From an uncultured Gammaproteobacteria bacterium (GTDB taxonomy: Bacteria; Patescibacteriota; Microgenomatia; CAZETR01; Amesbacteraceae): a stretch of 64,000 nt of DNA. Below the pieces are notes generated by a model, which had not been told where the DNA came from, did no database searches, and saw only the letters and a list, made by a program, of their open reading frames with translations. The stretch lies in contig CAZFGX010000001.1 in NCBI GenBank assembly GCA_964518565.1, positions 905,553 through 969,552 on the forward strand, in the 5' to 3' direction. Positions 36,736-64,000 of the stretch are shown piece by piece; position 1 is the first letter of the stretch; every line of letters starts with the position of its first letter. The position numbers and the translations under genes were made by a program.

Positions 36736-37218
36736 TTAATTCTGATTAAGGAGTTCGTGAATAGTTTTAATTAACTCAACGTCCTCAATGTCGTATTGGC
36801 AGCTTCCAATAGACTCAACTCCACTCTGAGTAAAAATATAATACGTAACTTCTGGCCCATCGTATGCACTCGGACACATTTCTGTAAAAGGTTTGGATTT
36901 TATTTTCTCAAAATCTGTACTTTGAATTTCACTCGTAAGGATAGACAGTTCATTTTTGCCCAATTTCACACTCGACCCCTGACCATTTAAAGAATCGCCA
37001 TTTTTTCTAATAAAAGATTGAGAAAAACAAGGACCGTCTGGACACAACCCCCCCTCCGCATTTATCACGACCAAATAGTCACTTGAAGACTCTATCGTTT
37101 TTTTATCAATTGGAGTTCTGTTTGGGTAGAAATAAGTTTTGTATATGTAAAACAAACCGCAGACAGCAACCCCTAAGACCAGGAAAAACACTAATCGCCT
37201 TCTCATTAACCAAGCCAT
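36736..37218 (-). CDS. membrane-anchored hypothetical protein
   Basis: 160 aa with an N-terminal TM, in an AT-rich region. Confidence 0.35.
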   Translation of the reverse strand: MAWLMRRRLVFFLVLGVAVCGLFYIYKTYFYPNRTPIDKKTIESSSDYLVVINAEGGLCPDGPCFSQSFIRKNGDSLNGQGSSVKLGKNELSILTSEIQSTDFEKIKSKPFTEMCPSAYDGPEVTYYIFTQSGVESIGSCQYDIEDVELIKTIHELLNQN

Positions 37219-37322
37219 ATAACCAGAATATCACTTTTGAATTAATGTTTAACGAGTAGTGTGAGAATTAAAAATTCGAAGCTAAAATGTCTGGCTCCGC
37301 CTTTAAGAGGCTATCCGAATGT

Positions 37323-37811
37323 TTAATTTAGCAAATTATCATTCAGATCTATTTGCTTTTTGAGCTCCACAAAATAACTCCATTTTTTGTCCTGATCGGA
37401 AAGAGAATTATAAAAAGCCTTAATTGTTTTATGCATCTTCTTCCCAATAGATAAATGGGGCCAAGGTTTAGTTTTTGCTCCATACCGATTTCTGGTATAG
37501 GTTAAATGAGCAACCTGCTTATCAGCTTTTCTTGCAACAAACAACAAATCCTTCTTCATTGTTTTGTTTTGTTTAAAAGTAAATAGGTTAGATGAATAAT
37601 GATATGCGAACATGTCATCAGGTCGCCTAACTTTCATTCTCTTTGGATAGAAGAAATCAAGAAGGCTTCTGGCATGTATTGCAAATGCGTCAAGAAGAAT
37701 ATTAACTTCAATATGGTTTCTAGGAGTTAGTAAAAGTAATAAAGTTTGGTAGAACATCCAAATTTCATAATAAATATGCTCGGATGCCTTTTTTAACTTC
37801 CGTTTTGTCAT
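37323..37811 (-). CDS. hypothetical protein
   Basis: 162 aa, Lys-rich, in an AT-rich region adjacent to a tRNA. Confidence 0.35.
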   Translation of the reverse strand: MTKRKLKKASEHIYYEIWMFYQTLLLLLTPRNHIEVNILLDAFAIHARSLLDFFYPKRMKVRRPDDMFAYHYSSNLFTFKQNKTMKKDLLFVARKADKQVAHLTYTRNRYGAKTKPWPHLSIGKKMHKTIKAFYNSLSDQDKKWSYFVELKKQIDLNDNLLN

Positions 37812-37844
37812 GAGTATTATGAAGTTCGGATAACGTCTATAGTG

Positions 37845-38106
37845 CTCCCCCGCAGGGATTCGAACCCCGAACCTTTTCGTTACAAGAACCCTCGCATTAC
37901 TGCAAGGCTTGGACTATCTCATCGACCACATGGGCCGCCAGGTATATAGTCTCTACACATTTACTACATATATTTATATGTAGATTTAGCTCGGGATTGT
38001 CCTACAAATGTAGGAGTTCCCCGAATTAGCCTGATTTTTCCACTCGATGTTGCCACCAAGGGCTGCCAATTGACAGCGAATTGCTCTACCGTTGAGCTAC
38101 AGGGGA
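37845..38106 (-). tRNA. tRNA-Asn(GUU) interrupted by a ~190-nt putative group I intron
   Basis: Exon 1 (38106..38073): UCCCCUG-UA-GCUC-AACGGUA-GAGC-A-AUUCG-CUGU. Exon 2 (37882..37845): UAA-CGAAA-AGGUU-CGGGG-UUCGAAU-CCCUG-CGGGGGA-G. Joined, they give a standard cloverleaf with a U1-A72 start like E. coli tRNA-Asn, anticodon loop CUGUUAA and discriminator G. No CCA is encoded. Because both intron flanks carry a full loop, the splice position is ambiguous; an Asp(GUC) reading is possible but lacks the U-1/omegaG boundaries. Confidence 0.6.
37883..38072 (-). ncRNA. putative group I intron inserted in the tRNA anticodon loop (between positions 35 and 36)
   Basis: The 5' exon ends in U and the intron ends in G (omegaG). 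There is an R-like element AGAGACUAUA (plus 37945..37954) and an S-like element GAGAUAGUCC (plus 37911..37920) that could form P7 (GACUA/UAGUC). Several local hairpins. No ORF inside. Confidence 0.55.
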
Positions 38107-38227
38107 ATAAATTGTTAATGTAATTCACCTGTACCAACGGTTCCGTTGAGCTATCACGATCCCGCAATGCGGGAGAGAGATAGAGAAATTTAGCTTGGCT
38201 AAATTTCGATACAGGGGAATAAATTGT
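38098..38227. repeat. partial tandem duplication of the tRNA-Asn 5' end in its leader
   Basis: The 18-nt direct repeat tacaggggaataaattgt occurs at 38098..38115 and 38210..38227 (tRNA nt 1-9 plus 9 nt of leader). The D-arm block ccgttgagcta is duplicated at 38089..38099 and 38143..38153. Hairpins lie between (cccgcaatgcggg; aaatttagc-ttg-gctaaattt). Confidence 0.6.
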
Positions 38228-38280
38228 CAAACCACATTATACTGCACTCCAGCAAAACCTTGTAGAACCTACAAAAACCA

Positions 38281-38320
38281 CAAACACTCCTCACGGGCAG
38301 GAGTGTTCGTACAAAAAACA
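38281..38320 (-). terminator. rho-independent terminator downstream of the DUF378 gene
   Basis: The minus strand reads ACACTCCTgcccgtgAGGAGTGT (8-bp stem) followed by TTGTGGTTTTTGT. Confidence 0.6.
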
Positions 38321-38324
38321 ACGA

Positions 38325-38567
38325 CTATTTCTTTTTCTTCTTAGACTTCATGTCATTCATACACAACATGCAGGTTTTCATATGATTGGCCGCTTCCCAT
38401 ACAGCAGAAGCACCTACGGCTATATATACCAAACTTTCCAACACTGGCATCATGCCAAAAATCACATGCACCACATTCAATCCCAGCAGTCCAACGAGTC
38501 CCCAATTTACTCCACCAACAATAACCAAAATCCAAGTGACCATATGTAGTTGTTTCACATCTCTCAC
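38325..38567 (-). CDS. DUF378 family membrane protein
   Basis: 80 aa. HMVTWILVIVGGVNWGLVGLLGLNVVHVIFG matches the DUF378 consensus. Confidence 0.7.
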   Translation of the reverse strand: MRDVKQLHMVTWILVIVGGVNWGLVGLLGLNVVHVIFGMMPVLESLVYIAVGASAVWEAANHMKTCMLCMNDMKSKKKKK

Positions 38568-38695
38568 CCCCTCAAAAAATATCTATATCTACTATACACA
38601 TTCTTCACGCGATTCTCATCCAGATATCTTACGCCCCTCTTACCCAGGCTGGTTAGACTAAAAAATATGAAATTCAAAGGAGGTGAATACAACAA

Positions 38696-39259
38696 ATGAA
38701 AACAGTGTTAATCGTTCTAATTGGTGTAGTAATTCTCGGTGGTTTAGTCTGGTACGCCGCCGAAAGTCAAAATCAGACTCCCATGACCAATCAAACAGTG
38801 GACGCACCTAGCGACTACGATCTGTCCAACTCGCCTACCACCACCTCAACTCCACCTATGGGCACTACCAATATCAGCCCTACCAGCTCTGAAGCCATGA
38901 CCTCTTCGCCAGTCACAACCCAAGCGGTCACCAGCTTAGTGATCAAGCTTGGATCAGTCAACGATTCCGGTCAAACAGGTACCGCCACACTGACTGAATC
39001 AAACGGCAAGGTCACAGTCAAAATTATGCTCACTGGCACACCCACAGGCTCAGACGAACCTGCCCATATACACACAGGACAATGTCCAGACGTGGGTGAC
39101 GTAAAGTATCCTCTGGCCAACGTTAAAAATGGCCAATCCACGACCCAAATCAACGCCACGATCGCCCAACTGCAAAATCAATTGCCACTGGCAATCAATG
39201 TCCACAAATCCGCCGCGGAATCCAAAACCTATACTGCCTGCGGCGATCTAATCTTCTAA
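38696..39259 (+). CDS. secreted CHRD-like domain protein with Ser/Thr-rich linker
   Basis: 187 aa. Strong SD AAAGGAGGTG. Signal/TM segment, a long S/T/P-rich stretch, then AHIHTGQCPDVGDV…LAINVHKS. Confidence 0.4.
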   Translation: MKTVLIVLIGVVILGGLVWYAAESQNQTPMTNQTVDAPSDYDLSNSPTTTSTPPMGTTNISPTSSEAMTSSPVTTQAVTSLVIKLGSVNDSGQTGTATLTESNGKVTVKIMLTGTPTGSDEPAHIHTGQCPDVGDVKYPLANVKNGQSTTQINATIAQLQNQLPLAINVHKSAAESKTYTACGDLIF

Positions 39260-47407: not shown

Positions 47408-48205
47408 TTAATGTAGATTTGCACCATACCCAAATGTATATAGCCAAGAAACAATTTGTCGAATTGGACTCGGCCATATAAGCGAAAACATATATCTATC
47501 TTCCACCATCCGTTTAGAATCTTCTATACGAATTACTGTCTCCATATCAGAGTGAATTCTGTGTTTCACCAGATCCCTATCTACATATACAAAACTTCCT
47601 GTCATTGCAGCGATTCTCCACCAAGCTTCCCAATCCAACGCGACTACCATATCATCGCGAAAAACAAATTTTCCCAATCGCGCTTTATGAAACATCACAC
47701 TTGGACATAAAATCGGACAACCCAATACCAACAAAGCCCGCTTCCGCCACAATTGACTAGCCCCACCCCAAATAAAAATTCCCGACAACAGCTGTTTAAT
47801 CAGCAAGCTAAAATATCCTCTCTTAGGATCAGTACGCAATTCAGAATATTTAGTAAAAATGATCAATGAGTTAGAACGTTGTCGTGCCGCCAACAAGCAA
47901 CATTCTGTATAGCTCGAATCATAGATATCATCTTGGTGCGCCAAGGTCACGTATTGTGTCTTGGCCAAAGCATAGGCTTTTGACCAATCTGGGCCAATAC
48001 CCTTCCCTGAATGGGGATACAATCTGAGACGATATTTTTCAGCAATTTTTTTTAAAAAAGGACTGGGAGTAGATGTAGAAATAAAAATTTCGCTTTTCAC
48101 TGTTTGTGCCAACAACGAGCGAATACAATCTTCCAAATAAACGGAGTCTTTATAAGCCAATACTACAAAACTATGTACGTAATCCATCAAAAACATATTA
48201 TACAA
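47408..48205 (-). CDS. glycosyltransferase family 2
   Basis: 265 aa. GT-A fold with DxD-like LAHQDDIYD. Confidence 0.65.
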   Translation of the reverse strand: MYNMFLMDYVHSFVVLAYKDSVYLEDCIRSLLAQTVKSEIFISTSTPSPFLKKIAEKYRLRLYPHSGKGIGPDWSKAYALAKTQYVTLAHQDDIYDSSYTECCLLAARQRSNSLIIFTKYSELRTDPKRGYFSLLIKQLLSGIFIWGGASQLWRKRALLVLGCPILCPSVMFHKARLGKFVFRDDMVVALDWEAWWRIAAMTGSFVYVDRDLVKHRIHSDMETVIRIEDSKRMVEDRYMFSLIWPSPIRQIVSWLYTFGYGANLH

Positions 48206-48229
48206 ACATTTTTGGTAAAATAATTCGTA

Positions 48230-48922
48230 ATGAAGCCAAAAATTTCGCTAATCATCCCCTGCTTTAACGAAGCAGAAAGCATAGGCTCAGTACTCAAGTC
48301 CATACCAAAAACAGCAAATATCGAAACAATAGTCATCGACAACAATTCACGAGACCAAACAGCAACTATTGCCAAAAAAATGGGAGCCAAAGTAATCTTT
48401 GAACCCAGACAAGGAAAGGGATATGCAGTGAGAACTGGAATAAAAAATATCGACAAAAAATCTGAATATGTTGTAATGCTTGACGGTGACAACACCTACA
48501 GACCAGAAGAAATATTTCGTCTAGTTGAACCACTACAAAATAATTTTTGCGATGTCATATTGGGTTCGCGCCTGAGTGGAAAAGTAAAACCAAACTCAAT
48601 GAAATTCCATAGCCGAGTCGGAAATTGGTTCTTTTCCTTTTTAGTTAGATTTTTTTACGTGACAAATGTTACAGATGTCCTCACGGGATACTTTGCCTGG
48701 AAAACTGATGCGATTAAAAAACTTCTTCCTGTATTAACCTCCCAAGGTTTTGAAATAGAAATGGAAATGATCACAAAAATGGCCAAAATGGGCTATGGCA
48801 TATACTCTGTTCCAATTACCTACGACAAAAGGATTGGCAAATCAAACCTAAGCAGTATAAAAGATGGAATAAAAATCTTTAAAGAATTTTTAAAAAATTT
48901 ACAATGGAAACCACAAAAATAA
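48230..48922 (+). CDS. glycosyltransferase family 2 (dolichyl-/polyprenyl-phosphate sugar transferase-like)
   Basis: 230 aa. ISLIIPCFNEAESI…MLDGDNTYRPEE. Confidence 0.8.
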   Translation: MKPKISLIIPCFNEAESIGSVLKSIPKTANIETIVIDNNSRDQTATIAKKMGAKVIFEPRQGKGYAVRTGIKNIDKKSEYVVMLDGDNTYRPEEIFRLVEPLQNNFCDVILGSRLSGKVKPNSMKFHSRVGNWFFSFLVRFFYVTNVTDVLTGYFAWKTDAIKKLLPVLTSQGFEIEMEMITKMAKMGYGIYSVPITYDKRIGKSNLSSIKDGIKIFKEFLKNLQWKPQK

Positions 48923-50109
48923 AAATTTTTTGGATAGTTCCACATTTAAATCTTTGGCAAGGGGGGTATAGATTTATCGCAGACTTATGCAAACAAACAT
49001 CAAATCAAATAACGACCACAATTGGTTACTCATCAGGAAAACAGGATTTAATTAGACATTTTGAACAAAGCAATGTCATAACAAAAAAAATTGGCGCTAT
49101 TGGAACAAATATCTTTTGGTATTGGGTACTAAGTCCACTATTTATTCTAGTTGAAATCATTTGTTCGTTAAAAACAACTAAAAATAACGACAAGGTAATC
49201 GCTTCACTTTTCCCCTCCATCTTCGTTTCCGCTGTATGCGCAAAAATATTTAAAAAAGATTTCATTCATTTTTGTTTTGTACCTTATCCATGGTTCTATG
49301 ACGAAAAATTTATCGACGAGCACAAATTTTATTTACGCGTCGCATTCAAGTTCTTAAGGTTTATATACACACCCTTAGATAAATGGGCTGCCAAATCTGC
49401 CAAAAAAACAATAACCCTGGATCCAATTAGTGCTGAACAAATCCATACGGTATATGGAATAAAAGCATTTCAAATTTCGTTAGGAATCGATACAAAACAT
49501 TTTCGGCCAATAAATAAAAAAAGAAATGAGATATATAAAAAATATTCATCTAATAAAATAATTTTTCATTCAACCGATTATTCACATTTAAAAAAAACAG
49601 AGAGAGTAATTGACATATTTACCGACGTTCAAAAAAAAATACCCAATACATTATTACTTATTAGTACTACCAGACCAGGAACCGCGGATGAAATTCGAAT
49701 TAAGAACAAAATAGTAAAACTAGGATTAAGCAAAAAAATTATTCTAACGGGAAAAATTGAGTATCAATTACTACCATACTACTTCTCAGCTGCAAGTTGT
49801 TACATTTCCCTTGCTGAAAATACCGCCATGTCAAATGTAAACTTACCTGTAAAGGAGGCGCTCGCCTGCGAAACAGCAGCAATAAGAACCCAAACCATAG
49901 TTCCAGATGTAACGAACAACAAATCCGGTTTCATAGTTAATCCCAATAACAAAAACCAAGTTATAAACAGAATCATGTATCTACTCAACAATCCGCTTCG
50001 TGCAAAAAAAATGGGCGTTTGGGGGAGGAAATCGATAATTCAACAATACTCATGGGAAAGAACTAGCGAAAAATTTGTTTCATTAATAGCTAATAACAAA
50101 AGTAATTAA
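48904..50109 (+). CDS. glycosyltransferase family 4 (GT-B)
   Basis: 401 aa. C-terminal GT-B region with the E-x7-E-like VKEALACETAAI. Confidence 0.6.
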   Translation: METTKIKIFWIVPHLNLWQGGYRFIADLCKQTSNQITTTIGYSSGKQDLIRHFEQSNVITKKIGAIGTNIFWYWVLSPLFILVEIICSLKTTKNNDKVIASLFPSIFVSAVCAKIFKKDFIHFCFVPYPWFYDEKFIDEHKFYLRVAFKFLRFIYTPLDKWAAKSAKKTITLDPISAEQIHTVYGIKAFQISLGIDTKHFRPINKKRNEIYKKYSSNKIIFHSTDYSHLKKTERVIDIFTDVQKKIPNTLLLISTTRPGTADEIRIKNKIVKLGLSKKIILTGKIEYQLLPYYFSAASCYISLAENTAMSNVNLPVKEALACETAAIRTQTIVPDVTNNKSGFIVNPNNKNQVINRIMYLLNNPLRAKKMGVWGRKSIIQQYSWERTSEKFVSLIANNKSN

Positions 50110-50842
50110 CTGTCCCCACAAGCAAAATATTACGGTAATGTTTTTTTAAAATTTTTGAGATTGAATTAAATTTATCACGATCAAGTGATTCAAAAAACAA
50201 ATATTTAGGCTTGTATTTAGAAAAGTCTAAGCCTATTAAGGCCTCAAGCTCATAACCTTCCAAATCAAGAGAGAGAAAATCTATTTGCCTAATTTTGCAC
50301 TGATCAAATAACTTAGTAAGAGTAATAGTAGGTACAGTATAAGAATATTTACGAACAAACGGGGACCCAGAATTCCAAAATGAAATATGATTTTTTATTT
50401 GAGCATCCGACATAGAATTTCTAACAACAGAAGACAAGCCTGAATAAAGTATTTCAATAAAAGAATTTTTGAAATACTTCGAAACCAAGGCAAATTGAAA
50501 AACCAAAGACCGGTTTCTATTCATTTTACATAACAATGCTTCTTTAGTATTTGGCTCAATTAATATTCCCCGCCACCCCAGTGCTTTTTCTAAAAAATAT
50601 GTATTACTTAAAAAAACCCCATTTGCAGCACCAGCTTCCACAAAAAAACCATCCCTAAAATTTAAGAATTTATTGAAAACGAGTTGAAAATCTTTTTCTT
50701 CGGTATGAGAAAAATAATAAATTCCAAATCGTTCAAAAAATGGCCGAAAGATAGTTACCTTTATCCAATAAATTCTATGAGGAATAAAATTCAATAGTAT
50801 TCGAAAAAAAATCTTCACGTTAATCAAAGCATAAATAATCAA
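50090..50842 (-). CDS. FkbM-family methyltransferase
   Basis: 250 aa. FVEAGAANGVFLSNTYFLEK…IDFLSLDLEGYE. Confidence 0.65.
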   Translation of the reverse strand: MIIYALINVKIFFRILLNFIPHRIYWIKVTIFRPFFERFGIYYFSHTEEKDFQLVFNKFLNFRDGFFVEAGAANGVFLSNTYFLEKALGWRGILIEPNTKEALLCKMNRNRSLVFQFALVSKYFKNSFIEILYSGLSSVVRNSMSDAQIKNHISFWNSGSPFVRKYSYTVPTITLTKLFDQCKIRQIDFLSLDLEGYELEALIGLDFSKYKPKYLFFESLDRDKFNSISKILKKHYRNILLVGTVNYFCY

Positions 50843-51554
50843 TGGAATTAATTTTTTGAATGGTTGAATAGTATCTTTTTAATAATGTGGCGACTTGTAC
50901 AAATTTATCTTTTGTTTGCGCCTCAAAAAGTAAAAATCTTGGTTTATATCTCGAAAAGTCTAAACCGGTCAACGCTTCATATTCGTAGCCTTCAACATCT
51001 AATGACAAAAAATCAATTTTTGAAATTCCACTTTGACGAATAATGTCATTCAAAGTCATCGCAGGCACAGTTCGCTCACCACGAACAGTCCATGGAGAAA
51101 CAGACCTAATTTTTTCAATATGAACCTTTTTCGATACATCATCCATCGCTCCACTAACCACACTCCCCAATCCCGCTTGAGAAATAGAAATAGAGGATCT
51201 TCGAAAATTTTTACCAACTAAAGCGCATGAAAAAACTGTCGAGCGCTTTCTATTTTTATTACACAAAGCAGCGTATTCAGGAATAGGTTCAACCAAAACA
51301 CCATGCCAATGACGAAATTTTTCCAGAAAATATGTATTACTAAATAAAACACCATCCCATGCCCCTGCTTCAAGGAAAACACCATTTTCAAAATTAAAAT
51401 GTTCATCAATTAATTTATCCAAACCCATTATTTCCATCCTTGAAAACCAAGTTAATCCAAACATTTCCGCAAAAGGTCTCAAAAACGCAGCCTTTATTCT
51501 ATAGTAAACATTAAACAAAACGGTAGAAAAGCGACCAGTTTTATTTATAGCCAT
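50820..51554 (-). CDS. FkbM-family methyltransferase (tandem paralog)
   Basis: 244 aa. FLEAGAWDGVLFSNTYFLEK…IDFLSLDVEGYE. About 50% identical to its neighbour. Confidence 0.65.
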   Translation of the reverse strand: MAINKTGRFSTVLFNVYYRIKAAFLRPFAEMFGLTWFSRMEIMGLDKLIDEHFNFENGVFLEAGAWDGVLFSNTYFLEKFRHWHGVLVEPIPEYAALCNKNRKRSTVFSCALVGKNFRRSSISISQAGLGSVVSGAMDDVSKKVHIEKIRSVSPWTVRGERTVPAMTLNDIIRQSGISKIDFLSLDVEGYEYEALTGLDFSRYKPRFLLFEAQTKDKFVQVATLLKRYYSTIQKINSIDYLCFD

Positions 51555-52953
51555 ACCACAAAAACAAATATTGCAAAATAAAAATATACATCAAAACAAA
51601 CAATAGAACCAAAATGAGATAATAAATTTTCATCCTTGAAGCCAAAATAGTAATTTTTGATTTTGCCGCAAATGGTGCAGCAGCTATTAACAACAAAGGT
51701 ACAAAATATTTACCTTGTACGCCATTTACCCACACGACATCTGCTGCGGTATTCGCTATAAATAAATACATATAAAGCAAGATAACCGACGAAACAACAC
51801 CAAAAACCAACAATCTTTTCTCTACTAAATAAAATGAAAATTTATCAACTACTCCATCCATCCACAATCCCAATACAGACATAAGTCCTAAAACAACAAC
51901 TCCCATTCCAAAATAAAAACGTACATCCAATCCTAGATAACCAAAAAATTCAGCCGGCAAAAAAGCAATAGTCATAGCAGATGTGTACAACGATGCTTTA
52001 ATAAAAATCAAAGGATGAAAAATTATTTGTTTTATTTGATACAACTGATCAAAACGGAAATCTGTGCCCTCTAGCAAATGCACATTTGATTCTTGAAAAA
52101 ACGTGTACTGATCCATCCGAGTGGCATTATTTACAGATGGATGAAACAAAAATACACTAGTCAAATAATAAAAAATTATTCCTAGAACCAAAATATTGAC
52201 TCCGATCAATAACTTTCTAAGCAAGAAAAATTTCTGAAAAAGTAAAAAGCTAAATACAAAAAAAATAGGGTAATAAAACGGTTTCAAAATAACTGCCGCT
52301 ATACCAGGCAAACAACACATCAACCACCATTTAGATATTGACCGAAAACGTATAAGTCTCAAAAAAACCGCAAACAATAAAAAAAGTCCCGGAGTTGAAA
52401 GTGAGTCATAACTAATAGTTGCAAAATGTAGTAAAACTACCGGCAATAAACCAAGCGCAAAAAATAGTCGTTTAAAATCAGGCGTAATACGAATCGCAGC
52501 AGCAACCAACAATAGACCAAATACTGAATTAAACACTCTTCCAAAATACAATTCATGAATTGGCGATAAACTAAAAAAATGAGCCAAAAAAATTCCAACT
52601 GCTGCTGCAGTATGACCATACAAAGGCGCTCCACAGACTAATGTCCTGACTGATTGATATGAAGAATCAGGCAGAGACTGGTATGAAAAAACTCGAGTCC
52701 AGTCAAATCCAGGCGGTGGAACAACCATAGATTTATCCAGTCCCATTTGCTCAATCAAATGTAATCGATTTTTTGAAATCAGATGCTGACCATCGTTACA
52801 AAAAACATGACCTTCTACCAATGCACTTGCAGCCAAATAATGTCTTTGCTCGTCAGGAATACGAAACGGAGGAATAAATATAGCAAAAAACACACAAGCC
52901 AAACCACCAAACACCAAATAAATGACAGGCAATTTTTTTTCAAAAACTCTCAT
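51541..52953 (-). CDS. DUF2142-like polytopic membrane protein (putative GT-C-type glycosyltransferase)
   Basis: 470 aa with more than ten TM segments. N-terminal PDEQRHY motif. Confidence 0.45.
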   Translation of the reverse strand: MRVFEKKLPVIYLVFGGLACVFFAIFIPPFRIPDEQRHYLAASALVEGHVFCNDGQHLISKNRLHLIEQMGLDKSMVVPPPGFDWTRVFSYQSLPDSSYQSVRTLVCGAPLYGHTAAAVGIFLAHFFSLSPIHELYFGRVFNSVFGLLLVAAAIRITPDFKRLFFALGLLPVVLLHFATISYDSLSTPGLFLLFAVFLRLIRFRSISKWWLMCCLPGIAAVILKPFYYPIFFVFSFLLFQKFFLLRKLLIGVNILVLGIIFYYLTSVFLFHPSVNNATRMDQYTFFQESNVHLLEGTDFRFDQLYQIKQIIFHPLIFIKASLYTSAMTIAFLPAEFFGYLGLDVRFYFGMGVVVLGLMSVLGLWMDGVVDKFSFYLVEKRLLVFGVVSSVILLYMYLFIANTAADVVWVNGVQGKYFVPLLLIAAAPFAAKSKITILASRMKIYYLILVLLFVLMYIFILQYLFLWYGYK

Positions 52954-57839: not shown

Positions 57840-57924
57840 GGAGGGGTCGCATAGTGGCCGAGTGCAGCGGTTTACTAAACCGCCATATCGCAAGATATCG
57901 CGAGTTCGAATCTCGCCCCCTCCG
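57840..57924 (+). tRNA. type II (Ser-like) tRNA whose anticodon reads ACU
   Basis: GGAGGGG-UC-GCAU-AGUGGCCGA-GUGC-A-GCGGU-UUACUAA-ACCGC, hairpin variable arm, GCGAG-UUCGAAU-CUCGC-CCCCUCC-G. A34 is unexpected for a bacterial tRNA-Ser (normally GCU). Confidence 0.55.
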
Positions 57925-58148
57925 CAGAAGGTCTTCGGTTGCTCCAAGACCCATCTACTATGCTCGATTAGCCCTATGTGGCTTGCTAAAAAGACGCTAA
58001 GAATCGCAAGTATCCCAAACATAGCCTGTAATGTATAAAATCGCCTAAATGGCCCTCAAGGTATTTGCGCTCGGTTCTAAGCTTTTGATGAAAAGAGCTG
58101 CTTTAGCCCTACGTTAGTGAAAAATCCTCGTTCTAATCTCGTTTTTCC

Positions 58149-58796
58149 TTACTTGAAGTTAAATGTGGGGAGTATTTGATCAGTAATTGCTTTATTTGCT
58201 GGAGTCGGAGGAAGAGTTGAGACAGAAAACAGCTTATTGCCTTTTAAAACGATAGTTATATATCGTGTTTTTGGTCCTAGAATAAGACCTTCAATTCCTT
58301 TATAGCCATCAATCGTAGTTTCTTTAATGCTCGCTGGATCCATTTCTGTTTTTGTTCGTTCTAAATCTTGTTCAGTCGCATCTTTATATTGTTCATATAA
58401 ACCATACATTTGATACTCAGGATTATTCTCTGTGCCTTTGGTTAGAAAGAACCCAGCAGTTCGGATGCTTCCTGCGTTATCAGCAATTTCTTTACGGTAA
58501 ACGAGATCTTTGGGATGTTGAAGGGACAATCCGATTTCATCTATCATTTCTGATTGCAGATCGGGGCTGGTAGGTACTTGCTTAGTAAAGTTCCTGCCGT
58601 CAGGAGTTTTACATTGCTCAGGATAGCTCTCCATGATGGGGTATCCCGCTTGAGCACATTCCTCAAAAGTACTAATACTCTGTACTTTTGAAATTTTCTG
58701 ATATTTCCACACAACAACACTAGCGATAAGGAGAACGACGAAAACTGCGATGAGTTTGATATTTTTATTCATCATCATACGTATGTATTGTATCAA
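58149..58796 (-). CDS. membrane-anchored hypothetical protein
   Basis: 215 aa with an N-terminal TM. Confidence 0.4.
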   Translation of the reverse strand: MIQYIRMMMNKNIKLIAVFVVLLIASVVVWKYQKISKVQSISTFEECAQAGYPIMESYPEQCKTPDGRNFTKQVPTSPDLQSEMIDEIGLSLQHPKDLVYRKEIADNAGSIRTAGFFLTKGTENNPEYQMYGLYEQYKDATEQDLERTKTEMDPASIKETTIDGYKGIEGLILGPKTRYITIVLKGNKLFSVSTLPPTPANKAITDQILPTFNFK

Positions 58797-58802
58797 TTTT
58801 TG

Positions 58803-60116
58803 TCAGATAAGGCTAAGCTGTCTGTCTCTCAGGCTGAATTTCGAATTTACACCTTTGAGGATTTTGAGTCTTTCCTCTGGAGTTCCAAATTGAAGAACGT
58901 GGAGTAAATATTCTTTGAGCATTTCGGTATGTGTTTCGCTATATTCTCTCGGACTCTGGTCGCCTGTGTTATGAGGAGTGATTTCTACTCTGGGTATATA
59001 GTCACTAATCACGTTTGCTTTGAAATGTTGCAGTCTTTTTACTTCTACTTCAAACTCTTGCATCAGATATGAGGTGTTTAGTTTGATTTTTGGTAGATAA
59101 CCGATTAGTTGTTTGATCAACTCTTGCTCTGTAATGTATGGCTCGGGGCAATCATATTTCTTGATGCGATTACAGTGATAATAAATGTGCGAATTTACTA
59201 TGTTTGCTTTCGTTCTTCGGTATTTTAGTTCAGCGGTTACACTTCCACCGCACGACCCGCAGATACAAATTTTCTTGAACGGAAACAGTTGTTTATTCCA
59301 TTGTCTCGGTGCAACTTGAAGTTGAATTTGCACCCTTTCAAATAACGCTTTTGTGATGAGTGGTTCATAGGTTCCTTTGTACCAGATATTTCCGTACTGA
59401 AACTCGCCGTAGTAAAAAGCGTTTTGGAGAGCAACGTAGATTTTACTCAGAGGCATTTTGCATCCACTCTTTGTGGTAAATCCTATGTCATCCAACCATT
59501 TCTTGACCATCCGTCCTGAGAATCCTTGATCGGCAACCTTATGAAATATTTGTTTGATAACTGGTGCTCGTTCAGGATCGAGTTCCACCGTTGATATCCG
59601 GTTTACTTTTAGGACATTTCTATACCCAATTGGTGCAACTCCAGGTCTGATTCCAATCTGACATTTATTGCGTAACCCTCGTTTAACATTCACACCTCGA
59701 TTATCATTCTCCAGCTTTGCTTGTGAGCAGAGAATCATCAGTAAGAATTTCTCGTTGGGATTATCGGTAAACGATTGAGAGTAGGTTTTGATATGGGTCA
59801 GTTTTCCTTGATCCATTAAATCAACAATTCGTCCTAAATCTCCAGCATTTCGAGATAACCGATCAGGAGCCCATGTGAGAATACTGTTGTATCGTCCTTC
59901 AGTTACTCCAAGCAGAAGATTGTTAAACTCTGGTCGTTGGCCCGATTCTTTGGCTGAGTGGCTTTCTGTAATTGTCTCAGTAATATCAAGTTTTTCTCGC
60001 TTTGCAAGAAGTTGCATTTCTTTAAGTTGACCGTCAATCGACATTGCTTGCCGTTCATCCGATTCGCTTGATTTACGGGCGTATAAGCAGTATTTCAGCC
60101 TGGTAGCATCTTTCAT
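58803..60116 (-). CDS. large serine recombinase (resolvase/invertase catalytic domain + recombinase domain + zinc ribbon)
   Basis: Start moved to MKDATRLKYCLYARKSSESDE… (catalytic Ser in YARKSS). Downstream DRLSRN and a C-terminal CxxC…C ribbon. 438 aa. Confidence 0.8.
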   Translation of the reverse strand: MKDATRLKYCLYARKSSESDERQAMSIDGQLKEMQLLAKREKLDITETITESHSAKESGQRPEFNNLLLGVTEGRYNSILTWAPDRLSRNAGDLGRIVDLMDQGKLTHIKTYSQSFTDNPNEKFLLMILCSQAKLENDNRGVNVKRGLRNKCQIGIRPGVAPIGYRNVLKVNRISTVELDPERAPVIKQIFHKVADQGFSGRMVKKWLDDIGFTTKSGCKMPLSKIYVALQNAFYYGEFQYGNIWYKGTYEPLITKALFERVQIQLQVAPRQWNKQLFPFKKICICGSCGGSVTAELKYRRTKANIVNSHIYYHCNRIKKYDCPEPYITEQELIKQLIGYLPKIKLNTSYLMQEFEVEVKRLQHFKANVISDYIPRVEITPHNTGDQSPREYSETHTEMLKEYLLHVLQFGTPEERLKILKGVNSKFSLRDRQLSLI

Positions 60117-60207
60117 CAGGTACAAGGTACCGCAAAGGTTCTGGAAGTCTAGTCGGGGAATACTATAACCCCGCGATGAAAACCTCCAACCTTTAAGGAC
60201 TCTCTTT

Positions 60208-60402
60208 TTACTTACTAGTCCAAGCAAAAAAATGAGTTATTAAAGTAAAACCGAGGGCAATCCATCCGACAATTGCTGGTAAAAATGCATTGCCAACCAG
60301 GTAGTGCTGCAATAAAATTGCCGCACCAAATCCTCCAACTGCGTGGGAAAGACTTGATAACATAACGTGCTTTGACCAATAATTTATAGGTTTTTCAATC
60401 AT
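60208..60402 (-). CDS. small two-TM membrane protein (paralog of 62091..62285)
   Basis: 64 aa. YWSKHVMLSSLSHAVGGFGAAILLQ…, about 65% identical to its paralog. Confidence 0.45.
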   Translation of the reverse strand: MIEKPINYWSKHVMLSSLSHAVGGFGAAILLQHYLVGNAFLPAIVGWIALGFTLITHFFAWTSK

Positions 60403-60404
60403 TT

Positions 60405-60917
60405 TTATACACCTCCTTTCTTAATTTTATTTTTGTTATAATTTTTCAGTATTCTCCAGGAAATATATGTAGAGAAAATTGCTACGGTTATGCTTGTAAA
60501 TATATCAATCGGATGATGCACCTCTGCAAGTATCCGCGCAAAACCCACAAGTAATCCTAATAGAAATAAGACTGATCCTAAGCGTTTATTAAAAACGAAT
60601 ACTATCGAGGCAATACTCATCACAAGTAATGTGTGATCTGATGGAAATCCATTATTTGCTGCATGAGGAATAAGAGGCTTTACATGTTCGACTACGAAAG
60701 GTCGTGGATTATAGAACAACCTCCCAAGAATATTGGCAATAATAAAGGCAAGAGGTAAGGTAAGAAGCACTAATTTGAGGATATCTTTTCTTGCTGTTTG
60801 GTTTGTAAAAACTACTGCAGTGATTGCAATCAAAGTGATGACTATATAAAGATAATTTGCTAAAAGAATGATAATTGAGTTAATCATAGTTCTTAAGAGT
60901 AATTGCCTCATCCGCAA
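60405..60917 (-). CDS. PAP2-family phosphatase (type 2 phosphatidic acid/undecaprenyl-PP phosphatase-like)
   Basis: 170 aa. Membrane protein with the PSDH and SxH…R-type motifs (GFPSDHTLLV). Confidence 0.65.
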   Translation of the reverse strand: MRMRQLLLRTMINSIIILLANYLYIVITLIAITAVVFTNQTARKDILKLVLLTLPLAFIIANILGRLFYNPRPFVVEHVKPLIPHAANNGFPSDHTLLVMSIASIVFVFNKRLGSVLFLLGLLVGFARILAEVHHPIDIFTSITVAIFSTYISWRILKNYNKNKIKKGGV

Positions 60918-62094
60918 CTACTTTTCCCCATGTTTGCTTCATAAAAAAGAGAGCAAACGCATGAAGTTTCATCAGTTTCATAACTTGATTTCTTGCCCAT
61001 AATTCAAAGGGAGACCCTGGAACAACTGTACGCAGAAGCTTAATATTTTTCTGTTTTTGTTCTACAAATGGCCGAAGCTCTTTTTCATACGCTGGAAAAG
61101 CAATCTTGTAATCACCATCCGCTGCTTTTAGCTCGCCAGCGAGGATATATGCACCGACCATTGCCAACTGTGAGCCATAACCAGTAAGTAGGGTTGGACA
61201 GTATCCTGCATCTCCGACTAAAGCAACGCGTCCTTTTGACCAAGTATCCATCTGCACTTGACTGACAACGTCAAAGAAGAAATCCTTAGTTGTTTTCATG
61301 GATTCAAGCAAGCTTGGTATCTCCCATTCCTTCTCTGGAAATAATTCAGAAAGTAGCTGTTTTTGCCTCTCGGTATCATGGAAATCATATTTCAGTTGTG
61401 TTTCATGTCTCAGGGTAAAAACGGCTATAACCCCTCCCTCTTTCAAGTGGTAGAGTGTCACGCTTTTGCCAGGCATGGTATAAAAACTAACTTCCCCATA
61501 GCGCGATGGGTGATTGGGTATAGTAAATGCTGCAACATAATGCCCCATATACTGCTTGAAGCGTGATTCATCACCAAAGACAAGCGTACGTACTTCTGAA
61601 TGTAGCCCATCAGCTCCTATAACCAAATCGAATTTTCTGCTCTTGCCGCTTTCAAAGGTAGCGTTTACGTCCTCAGCATCTTCAGCAAGCTTCTTTATTG
61701 GATCTCCAAAAATGTAGTCAACAGTATCTTTTGTATAGTCATATAAAATCCGTGCCAAGTCGGCCCTTCGCATGTAGGTAATCTGCCGACCTGTAATTTC
61801 TTTTGTCAGCTCTCCCACATTCATGACTGATATGGGTTTATTGTCCTTATCAACAAAAGTCCATTGATACCCTTCAAACCGTTCTTTCTCTACCTGAGGC
61901 CACACACCCATTCGTTCAAGCACTTCGACCCCTCTTTTGCCATCCAGTCCAAAGATATATCCGCCTTGTCTGGGAACAGGTGATTTCTCAACTACAGTCG
62001 GGTTGAAGCCGTATTTTTTAAGCCAATAGGCAAGTGTTGGGCCAGCAATACCAGCTCCTGAGATGAGTATGTTTTTATTTGTCATATTTTTCAC
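60880..62094 (-). CDS. FAD-dependent monooxygenase (group A flavin monooxygenase, TetX/UbiH-like fold)
   Basis: 404 aa. N-terminal GAGIAGPTLAYWL dinucleotide fold, DLVIGADGLHSEVR, GDAGYCPTLLTGYGSQLA. Confidence 0.8.
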   Translation of the reverse strand: MKNMTNKNILISGAGIAGPTLAYWLKKYGFNPTVVEKSPVPRQGGYIFGLDGKRGVEVLERMGVWPQVEKERFEGYQWTFVDKDNKPISVMNVGELTKEITGRQITYMRRADLARILYDYTKDTVDYIFGDPIKKLAEDAEDVNATFESGKSRKFDLVIGADGLHSEVRTLVFGDESRFKQYMGHYVAAFTIPNHPSRYGEVSFYTMPGKSVTLYHLKEGGVIAVFTLRHETQLKYDFHDTERQKQLLSELFPEKEWEIPSLLESMKTTKDFFFDVVSQVQMDTWSKGRVALVGDAGYCPTLLTGYGSQLAMVGAYILAGELKAADGDYKIAFPAYEKELRPFVEQKQKNIKLLRTVVPGSPFELWARNQVMKLMKLHAFALFFMKQTWGKVVADEAITLKNYD

Positions 62095-62285
62095 TTACTC
62101 CTATGAGCGATTACATGAGTTATCAGGGTAAACCCGAGGGCTACCCACCCAACTACAACTGGCACGAATACATCACCAGCTATATAGTTCTGCAAAACCA
62201 CTGCTGCTCCAAAACCTCCGGCGGTATGGGACAAACTTGACAAAACAACATGCTTTGACCAATATTTAATAGCATTTTCAAACAT
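62091..62285 (-). CDS. small two-TM membrane protein (paralog of 60208..60402)
   Basis: 64 aa. Overlaps the upstream monooxygenase stop by 4 bp. Confidence 0.45.
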   Translation of the reverse strand: MFENAIKYWSKHVVLSSLSHTAGGFGAAVVLQNYIAGDVFVPVVVGWVALGFTLITHVIAHRSK

Positions 62286-62302
62286 TTTTATTCACCTCCT
62301 TC

Positions 62303-63517
62303 CTATAACTTTTCATAGTCTTTTAAGACAAATGATTCACGAAACATTTTCCCATAAGTCATTCTTGCTACAGGGCGAGACAGTAAAGGCGAAGATAAAA
62401 GTTTTAATACATGATTTCTTATCCAGAGTAAAATAGCGCTATCTGGGACAAGTTGCATTCCTGTTCCTCGTGCTTCTTTTGTTTTTTGTTCTACAAAGGG
62501 CTTAAATTCTTGCTCGTATGCAGCAAAGGCGGTCTTATAATCACCGTCTGCTGCTTTGAGTTCTCCTGCCAATATATATGCTCCGATGAGAGATAAACTC
62601 ACACCCCATGCAGATAAAGGGGTGGGGTATCCTGCATCGCCAACAAGAACAACCCGACCTTTTGACCACTTGTCAATTTGAATAAGATTGGCTGAATCAA
62701 ACAGAAAATCCTGCACTTTCTTTGCTTGCTCAAGAATTTCTGGCATCGGCTTCCAGTGAAATTTTGAGAACTCTTCTGCAAACAATTTCTTTTGCGTATC
62801 AATATCGTGGTGATCAATTTTAAATTTTTCAGTTCGTCTAAAAACTGCGTAGACCATTGCGCGGTTATTGGCAAAGCCAAAGAGGGAGATAAATTTTCCA
62901 GGTGTGGTAAATGAGATGTTTGTCCCGATTTTTGTTGGGTAGTCTACCCAAAACGAAACTTGATAGTATCCCATGTAATGGGCTATGTGGGACTCTTCTC
63001 CAAAGACTAAAGAACGTACCTTTGAGTGAATACCATCTGCTCCTATAACAAGATCGAATCTCCTTGTTTTTCCGCTTTCCAATACAACCTCTACACTGTC
63101 TGTGTCTTCTTTCATTGATTGAATAGAGTCACCAAAAATATATTCCACATTTTCTTTTGTTTTGTCATATAAAATCTTGGCCAAATCCACTCTTAAAATC
63201 TGGGTTTGTGCTCGACTTGGGTCATCAAAAGTTTCTTTAAACATCCGCTCTATATCCACTTTTGCTGCAACTTCATTTGCTTCATTCATAAACAACATCT
63301 CTTTGGGACTATATTGTTTTTCTCTGACTTGATCCATGATACCCATTTGCTCTGCAACCTTTATGCCAGTCCCACGAAAATCGACTAAATATCCGCCTTC
63401 ACGAGGTTTAGGTGCATGTTCTACCACAGTAGGGTTAAACCCATACTTTTTGAGCCAATACGCCAAAGATGGGCCTGCAATACCTGCTCCTGAAATAAGA
63501 ATGTTTTTGTTTGTCAT
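62303..63517 (-). CDS. FAD-dependent monooxygenase (paralog of 60880..62094)
   Basis: Start moved to MTNKNILISGAGIAGPSLAYWL…. Same motif set; about 50% identical to its paralog. Confidence 0.8.
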   Translation of the reverse strand: MTNKNILISGAGIAGPSLAYWLKKYGFNPTVVEHAPKPREGGYLVDFRGTGIKVAEQMGIMDQVREKQYSPKEMLFMNEANEVAAKVDIERMFKETFDDPSRAQTQILRVDLAKILYDKTKENVEYIFGDSIQSMKEDTDSVEVVLESGKTRRFDLVIGADGIHSKVRSLVFGEESHIAHYMGYYQVSFWVDYPTKIGTNISFTTPGKFISLFGFANNRAMVYAVFRRTEKFKIDHHDIDTQKKLFAEEFSKFHWKPMPEILEQAKKVQDFLFDSANLIQIDKWSKGRVVLVGDAGYPTPLSAWGVSLSLIGAYILAGELKAADGDYKTAFAAYEQEFKPFVEQKTKEARGTGMQLVPDSAILLWIRNHVLKLLSSPLLSRPVARMTYGKMFRESFVLKDYEKL

Positions 63518-63518
63518 A

Positions 63519-64000
63519 CTATGATGCCCTACTTCGTAGTAGCCGAACGCCATTTAACACCACAAGCACTTCACCAAATTCATCAATAAATAATATGTGA
63601 CTAACAGATAACAGCATAAAGACTGCCAAAATCATCATGCTCACTTGTAGGACAGTTGAAAAGAGTAGGTTTTGTTTAACGATCTGCTTTGCATAATAGG
63701 AGAGGCGAATTGCTTCAGGAATTTTGCTTAAGTCATCACCCATGATGGCAACGTCGGCCGCTTCCAGTGCTGCGTCAGTTCCGGCTGTTCCCATTGCCAT
63801 ACCCACAGAGCTTTCCGCAAGAGCCGGCGCATCATTAATGCCATCACCAACCATGACTACATGACCATATTTCTTTTTCAACTCCTTAATTTTTTCTACT
63901 TTTTGATCTGGCTTGAGTTCAGCAAAAATCGTATCTACCCCAAGTGACCTACCTATCTGTTCTCCAACTAAGGTATGGTCACCAGTAAGCATGACTGTTT
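63519..64000 (-). CDS. heavy-metal-translocating P-type ATPase, C-terminal part (N-terminus beyond window)
   Basis: The hinge motif VGDGINDAPAL and the final two TM helices. The gene clearly continues past coordinate 64000. Confidence 0.85.
   Translation of the reverse strand, partial: TVMLTGDHTLVGEQIGRSLGVDTIFAELKPDQKVEKIKELKKKYGHVVMVGDGINDAPALAESSVGMAMGTAGTDAALEAADVAIMGDDLSKIPEAIRLSYYAKQIVKQNLLFSTVLQVSMMILAVFMLLSVSHILFIDEFGEVLVVLNGVRLLRSRAS

Follow-up and report, generated by a model that had tools for sequence, protein, structure and literature searches.

A compact group I intron in the anticodon of a tRNA-Asn(GUU) gene from a probable Patescibacteria host

In a 64-kb stretch of bacterial DNA, referred to as the window throughout, two segments that look like the halves of a tRNA lie 190 nt apart, and neither default ARAGORN nor the Rfam tRNA model calls a tRNA at this locus (37845–38106). 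This raises the question of whether the halves belong to one interrupted gene and, if so, which tRNA it encodes and what kind of element has split it. A first-pass annotation made from the sequence had proposed a tRNA-Asn(GUU) carrying a compact group I-like intron in its anticodon loop. With high confidence we now read the locus as a tRNA-Asn(GUU) gene, most likely of a Patescibacteria host, that is split at U35/U36 by a compact, presumably self-splicing group I intron of 190 nt.

The split tRNA gene and its intron

Joining the two exons in silico yielded a 72-nt cloverleaf, which ARAGORN identified as tRNA-Asn(GTT), the host tRNA that had been proposed. The halves are separated by the 190 nt reported before and form a 7-bp acceptor stem (TCCCCTG/CGGGGGA); its pairing, described as perfect in the first-pass annotation, includes one U.G wobble. 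The anticodon stem UUCG/CGAA contains the expected 4 bp plus an A.A mismatch at 27-43 that had gone unmentioned, and the T arm reads CGGGG-TTCGAAT-CCCTG in the ARAGORN drawing, again as described. The acceptor end of the product carries U1-A72 and G73, which are typical of bacterial tRNA-Asn. Exon 1 ends with C32, U33, G34 and U35 and exon 2 starts with U36, A37 and A38, which places the insertion in the anticodon loop as suggested, at anticodon site 35/36 (U35|U36). A TATAAT motif upstream of the gene is likely its -10 box: related loci show gaTATAAT or ggTATAAT about 20–25 nt upstream of the tRNA 5’ end. A consensus promoter scan does not report the motif at 38241–38236 because a -35 element is lacking.

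The search with the Rfam group I intron model RF00028, on which the initial proposal had been made to depend, returned a significant match on the minus strand at 38082–37890 with 71.2 bits at a gathering score of 50 (E 4.6e-16). The match covers the full model (1–253) and is the single above-threshold RF00028 match in the 64-kb window. Our own search pattern was not matched once when the window was shuffled 100 times, and the intron signal is well past chance. One weak RF00028 match elsewhere (37066–37386, minus strand, 16.4 bits, E 0.37) lies in the ORFs 36736–37218 and 37323–37811 and was treated as a chance hit.

We assigned the helices by hand using the Rfam alignment as guide (Table 1). 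With its complete P1–P9 core the intron is a full group I member, so that the earlier classification can be kept and its qualifier “-like” dropped. The U at the end of exon 1 pointed out before is U38073, which pairs with G38066 in P1. Since this splice-site pair is the sole U.G wobble of P1, the 5’ splice site was placed after 38073. The terminal G noticed at first reading is G37883, located directly before UAACGAAA of exon 2. The two elements that had been suggested as R/S-like strands of P7, AGAGACUAUA (37953–37944) and GAGAUAGUCC (37920–37911), indeed contain the helix strands GACUAU and AUAGUC. Only 3 nt separate P7 from the 3’ strand of P3, and there is no P7.1/P7.2. In an alignment of 12 compact relatives (A1, see below) the P2 loop bases G, A and A fall into the invariant columns G54, A56 and A57, and the P9 loop bases G207, A209 and A210 are invariant as well. 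The intron is too short to leave room for a homing endonuclease ORF, and none was found: the sole overlapping ORF (37964–38230, 88 aa) has no Pfam match even at E ≤ 1, in agreement with the first-pass annotation.

Two further structural candidates were rejected. A P10 of 3 bp is possible between UAA of exon 2 and UUG of the guide, but it is not conserved in the nearest relative (L097) and is not claimed here. A protein-spliced bulge-helix-bulge intron would usually be short and sit at 37/38, whereas the window has a complete 190-nt group I ribozyme at 35/36 in a bacterial genome.

Table 1. Coordinates of the tRNA gene, the intron helices and the upstream elements in the window
Feature	Position	Strand	Description
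TATAAT	38241–38236	-	likely -10 box; read from sequence; relatives alike
Structured leader	38230–38107	-	between likely -10 box and tRNA; based on repeats and fold
tRNA-Asn exon 1	38106–38073	-	34 nt; nt 1–35 in standard numbering; ends ...CGCUGU including G34 and U35
Group I intron	38072–37883	-	190 nt, from C+1 to terminal omega-G 37883; RF00028
P1	38077–38072 / 38067–38062	-	exon GCUGU plus intron C with internal guide GGCAGC; Rfam alignment
P2	38060–38043	-	CUUGGUG-GCAA-CAUCGAG, GNRA tetraloop; read from sequence
P3	38034–38030 / 37942–37938	-	UCAGG / CCUGG; encloses P4, P5 and P6/P6a
P4	38024–38019 / 37996–37991	-	UCGGGG / UCCCGA; Rfam-guided hand fold
P5	38015–38010 / 38005–38000	-	UCCUAC / GUAGGA; Rfam-guided hand fold
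P6/P6a	37990–37957	-	P6a of 8 bp, A/U-rich
P7	37951–37946 / 37917–37912	-	GACUAU / AUAGUC; pseudoknot with P3; presumed guanosine-binding helix; encloses P8
P8	37936–37933 / 37927–37924	-	GGCC / GGUC; 4-bp stem
P9	37906–37891	-	CUUGCA-GUAA-UGCGAG, GNRA tetraloop; followed by 7-nt tail GGUUCUU and omega-G
tRNA-Asn exon 2	37882–37845	-	38 nt; starts UAA (U36, A37, A38); discriminator G73 last; no encoded CCA

Covariation among relatives and alternative readings

Related loci were collected from species-representative genomes with a pattern in which the 3’ strand of P7 is followed, after a short gap, by G|UAA and then by a T-loop spaced as in a tRNA. The comparison with related tRNA-Asn loci that had been recommended showed that no fewer than 99 of the first 120 matches listed carry this insertion; upon in-silico splicing and analysis with ARAGORN they gave tRNA-Asn(GTT) with CUGU|UAA exon ends. 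Intron lengths among the matches listed range from 179 to about 580 nt. Of 18 diverse loci scored with RF00028, 16 came out at or above the gathering score. For comparison of the junction we also looked for an intron-less tRNA-Asn in the fetched related loci, and none was present there. A metagenome scan for the exact sublineage with a P1 plus P3 pattern gave 0 matches.

Twelve compact relatives with introns of 179–203 nt were aligned with MAFFT (alignment A1) and the pairing predicted for the window was evaluated column by column. Overall 88.9% of the cells hold standard pairs in comparison to 76.6% in shuffles. In 34 pairs both partners have changed, and the covariation score of 0.340 (0.127 in shuffles) was reached in none of 500 shuffles; sliding the partner strands reduced pairing to 36–54%. 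P3 is 100% paired with three of its five pairs changed on both sides, P4 is 91.5% paired and contains compensatory changes, P8 covaries, and P9 is 97% paired with compensatory changes in 6/6 pairs. P7 is invariant in all 12 relatives. P2 reaches 51% only because MAFFT misregisters this variable hairpin. The splice-site pair is UG in 12/12 relatives (columns 35/48), and the P1 pair next to it covaries as CG, AU and UA. In the tRNA itself, pairing reaches 100% in the acceptor, D and T stems and includes compensatory changes across both exons. T1, the CTGT at the end of exon 1 and the ...GGAG end of exon 2 are invariant in the compact relatives; so is GTAA at the 3’ junction, although G|TAA was part of the search pattern and its conservation in the fetched loci does not count as independent evidence.

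Size variation in the family is almost wholly confined to the segment between P7 and P7’. This spacing measures 28 nt in the window, 26–40 nt in the compact class and 58–94 nt in typical members of 230–290 nt, and the segment following P7’ stays constant at 29–31 nt across the family. The window intron is a trimmed form of the family without extra helices between P7 and P3’.

A trimmed intron might also be a decaying one. If it no longer spliced, the locus would be a tRNA-Asn pseudogene and the functional tRNA-Asn would come from a second gene elsewhere; only 64 kb of the genome are visible, and the leader described below, with its duplication and inversion scar, bears witness to local rearrangement. 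However, every core helix is intact with no core pair broken, and the window intron agrees with all of the approximately 100 invariant columns of the compact class. Relatives just as compact are conserved in several CPR classes, among them a 196-nt intron that splices in vitro. Searches of the rest of the 64-kb window and of some 800 kb from related loci detected no further tRNA-Asn. Decay is therefore a very unlikely explanation.

The identity of the tRNA depends on where the boundaries are drawn. GU occurs at both of them (..CU|GU..UCU|UGUAA), so that shifting each by two bases turns the same locus into a tRNA-Thr(UGU) with the intron at 33/34 and a likewise 7-nt loop, CUUGUAA. Such loci are frequently annotated in this way by ARAGORN/tFind, as was the case for 8 of 15 published tRNA-Asn loci (Nakagawa et al. 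2026, PMC13011429). ARAGORN in intron mode miscalled the window locus too, in this case as Tyr(gta) with a 173-nt intron. A shifted intron would, however, end in U instead of G, and its 5’ splice-site U38075 would pair with an A in P1, losing the U.G wobble. The threonine assignment also conflicts with U1-A72 and G73, which are invariant in the family, and with the sequenced spliced products of homologues, which show the junction at 35/36 (PMC13011429). We consider it highly improbable.

That the two halves are a tRNA fragment and a distinct structured RNA with no relation to it, joined by chance or misassembly, would account for the missing tRNA calls of default ARAGORN and the Rfam tRNA model and for nothing else, and is excluded for all practical purposes by the RF00028 match over the full model, by the covariation of the acceptor stem across both halves in relatives and by two independent assemblies with identical sequence.

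Host genome, published class and distribution

The window is part of a bacterial chromosome and encodes enolase, iPGM, a DsbD-like protein, DnaG, RpoD and a DUF4012 protein; its GC skew of about -0.3 is unusually strong. Loci labelled Collierbacteria, Paceibacterota, Andersenbacteria and Parcubacteria share the gene order dnaG-rpoD-tRNA-Asn(intron) with the window, and RpoD is 68–76% identical to the best of the CPR-labelled loci. The intron DNA is closest to two copies from Gottesmanbacteria (L097 and L078). Gene order and RpoD similarity point to a host among the Patescibacteria, probably in the class Microgenomatia. Elsewhere in public data, traces occur only in Logan assemblies of SRR29476910 and SRR29476927, where two contigs span the tRNA locus with 100% identity. 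A phage origin had been suspected from the tRNA clusters and was rejected, as megablast gave no phage match and enolase, iPGM, DnaG and RpoD are encoded.

Some features of the surroundings were recorded along the way. In the tRNA-Ser at 57840–57925 (plus strand) position 34 of the anticodon loop UU-ACU-AA is an A, although one would expect a GCU isoacceptor here; Ser(GGA), Ser(CGA) and Ser(UGA) are present in the window as well. This tRNA-Ser(ACU) adjoins a gene for a large serine recombinase (58803–60227, minus strand). In 58001–64000, just past the tRNA-Ser pair and the recombinase gene, the GC skew changes abruptly from about -0.3 to values of about 0 / -0.1, suggesting an integrated mobile element. 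The region 48001–52000 has a low GC content (0.32–0.34) and encodes DUF2142-type membrane proteins.

Introns of tRNA genes have been catalogued in 21 classes (Williams 2020, bioRxiv 10.1101/2020.01.27.920355), among them ‘Asn.4Ug’ according to Nakagawa et al. (PMC13011429). The latter authors (mSystems; preprint 2025) surveyed 95 complete Patescibacteria genomes and reported that group I introns interrupt 15 tRNA-Asn(GUU) and 3 tRNA-Asp(GUC) genes at 35/36. One Asn and one Asp intron self-spliced in vitro in a GTP-dependent manner, sequencing of the products confirmed the 35/36 junction, and an omega-G-to-C change blocked exon ligation (PMC13011429). The window intron is a further example of this published and experimentally validated class, and the class itself is not new. 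The published introns measure 184–894 nt (mean 257), with endonuclease genes only in those above 500 nt (PMC13011429). The description of the window intron as unusually small is correct in so far as 190 nt lies at the small end of this range; with relatives of 179–196 nt in existence the size is not exceptional. Of the 28 introns at 35/36, 25 were assigned to subgroup IA (PMC13011429); the extra helices P7.1/P7.2 of this subgroup are not found in the window intron.

For a direct comparison the published intron sequences were taken from Tables S3 and S4 of PMC13011429 (alignment A2). Counted over alignment columns, the window intron is 73% identical to the 184-nt Asp intron of a Microgenomatia genome (GCA_030583725.1), 67% identical to the 196-nt Asp intron of another (GCA_001029755.1), which was spliced in vitro, and 53–54% identical to Asn introns of 222 and 234 nt that carry P7.1. 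The two Asp(GUC) introns share with the window the insertion position, the CUGU end of the 5’ exon, the compact form without P7.1/P7.2 and the near-identical core strings GGCTAATTCGGGGAA, AATCCCGAGCTAAATC, AAATGTGTAGAGACTATATACC and AGATAGTCC. They differ in the hairpin sequences of P2, P5, P6a and P8 and in the host tRNA, which is Asp with a 3’ exon starting CAC... instead of Asn with UAA... By sequence comparison, the window holds a compact Microgenomatia-type intron in a tRNA-Asn gene, both hosts offering a CUGU 5’ exon. The Patescibacteria tRNA-Asn(GUU) introns at 35/36, such as the 234-nt intron of GCA_016700035.1 that was spliced in vitro, agree with the window in host tRNA, site, U.G pair, omega-G and GNRA loops L2 and L9. 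Most of them lack an endonuclease gene, some carrying HNH endonuclease genes (PMC13011429). The published Asn introns that we compared contain an insert of 40–60 nt (P7.1-type) between P7 and P3’, which is absent from the window.

Two other bacterial tRNA introns offer themselves for comparison. The intron of Azoarcus pre-tRNA-Ile(CAU), reportedly described by Reinhold-Hurek and Shub in 1992, is said to be about 205 nt long and to have long served as a minimal group I ribozyme. It resembles the window intron in being a small bacterial anticodon-loop intron limited to P1–P9, with GNRA loops on P2 and P9 and no ORF, and differs in host tRNA, site and subgroup (IC3). At 190 nt the window intron is the shorter of the two, and its lineage has been classed as IA (PMC13011429). 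The cyanobacterial and plastid tRNA-Leu(UAA) intron, represented by the 249-nt intron of Nostoc PCC 7120 that was the positive control in PMC13011429, is likewise a self-splicing group I intron in the anticodon loop of a bacterial tRNA; it differs from the window intron in its site (34/35), its subgroup (IC3) and its larger size.

Within the wider family several observations reach beyond the window. The shortest intron listed, 179 nt in a tRNA-Asn of Candidatus Yanofskybacteria (MGKE01000007.1, locus L120, 5293–5477; site 35/36, RF00028 60.5 bits), is below the 184-nt minimum of the 2026 survey (PMC13011429), its P5 being down to a few base pairs. Among the first 120 matches the labels include CPR, Acidobacteriota, Nitrospirota, Cyanobacteriota, Elusimicrobiota, Planctomycetota, Methylomirabilota, Chloroflexota, Clostridia and others, and the tRNA-Asn 35/36 intron family occurs under at least 15 phylum-level labels as deposited, of which some MAG labels are evidently unreliable (e.g. 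‘Gammaproteobacteria’, ‘Pseudomonadales’, ‘Woesearchaeota’). Eight loci (L051, L061, L127, L137, L138, L150, L159 and L160) gave tRNA-Lys(UUU/CUU) instead of tRNA-Asn after in-silico splicing, a hint from sequence that tRNA-Lys may carry a related intron at the equivalent position. Three IMG/VR contigs of 436, 470 and 8 kb contain introns (L125 1948–2178, L135 1928–2126 and L132 4235–4424) that score 55–93 bits with RF00028 and splice in silico to tRNA-Asn(GTT) at 35/36. On the 436- and 470-kb contigs the intron lies inside dense tRNA arrays, that of L125 packing more than 30 tRNAs into 15 kb. The 35/36 Asn intron family thus also occurs in putative huge-phage genomes, a possible route between phyla.

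Structured leader, proposed splicing and implications

Downstream of the likely -10 box, the highly structured stretch leading up to the tRNA is built from partial copies, direct and inverted, of the gene’s own 5’ region. A 21-nt direct repeat (38230–38210 and 38118–38098) comprises leader sequence together with nt 1–9 of the tRNA. Behind the upstream repeat come a TA-flanked 56-nt insert of two hairpins, a second copy of TAGCTCAACGG and then, in inverted orientation, a copy of the tRNA 5’ end. TATAAT is located at the distance usual in relatives from the upstream duplicate, not from the real tRNA. Folded alone, the leader block of about 100 nt forms a four-way junction (-40.6 kcal/mol, z = -5.7). 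When the complete transcript of 388 nt is folded, the real exon 1 instead becomes the partner of the inverted copy, and the tRNA 3’ end that of the upstream repeat. According to these folds the leader may compete with the tRNA and P1 fold, which may make maturation less simple than in the relatives. The leader is absent from the 11 nearest relatives, and an Rfam E-value scan of 37000–39000 assigned it to no family, returning chance-level matches to mir-1010 and mascRNA and the 16-bit RF00028 match only. Because two independent assemblies reproduce the sequence, we take the leader to be real, and the simplest reading is a lineage-specific rearrangement scar. It is improbable that the leader is a functional RNA which mimics and masks the tRNA and gates splicing or RNase P processing. 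In that case the inverted copy would sequester exon 1 and thus P1, and the direct copy of the acceptor strand would pair with the tRNA 3’ end; the leader would then gate what may be the sole tRNA-Asn, in a genome poor in protein regulators.

For the tRNA-Asn(GUU) intron, maturation would proceed along the group I pathway. The primary transcript would fold into the P1–P9 ribozyme, and the internal guide GGCAGC would pair with the end of exon 1, presenting the U.G wobble. The first attack, after U38073, would come from an external guanosine in the P7 site; the terminal G37883 would then replace this guanosine there, and the freed 3’-OH of exon 1 would attack after G37883. The joined exons would form the 72-nt tRNA, which still awaits 5’ processing and CCA addition. 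Homologues with 67% (Asp-196) and 54% (Asn-234) identity to the window intron splice in vitro (PMC13011429), and by analogy the window copy is probably active in vivo. Within the 64 kb of genome seen, this locus is the only tRNA-Asn gene, and it may be the only one of the cell. Lacking an endonuclease gene, the intron is presumably immobile and inherited vertically.

The natural variants of 179–190 nt without P7.1/P7.2 are shorter than the minimal ribozyme from Azoarcus with its about 205 nt; a literature search for ‘smallest group I intron’ gave no relevant support. For the window itself the practical value is one of annotation: tRNA finders at default settings miss the tRNA-Asn gene, so that the genome would seem to be without tRNA-Asn, an effect that distorts completeness estimates of Patescibacteria, a point already made in PMC13011429. 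Beyond the window, the 35/36 Asn intron is spread across draft genomes, and also across tRNA arrays of putative huge phages, far more widely than the 28 cases reported from complete genomes.
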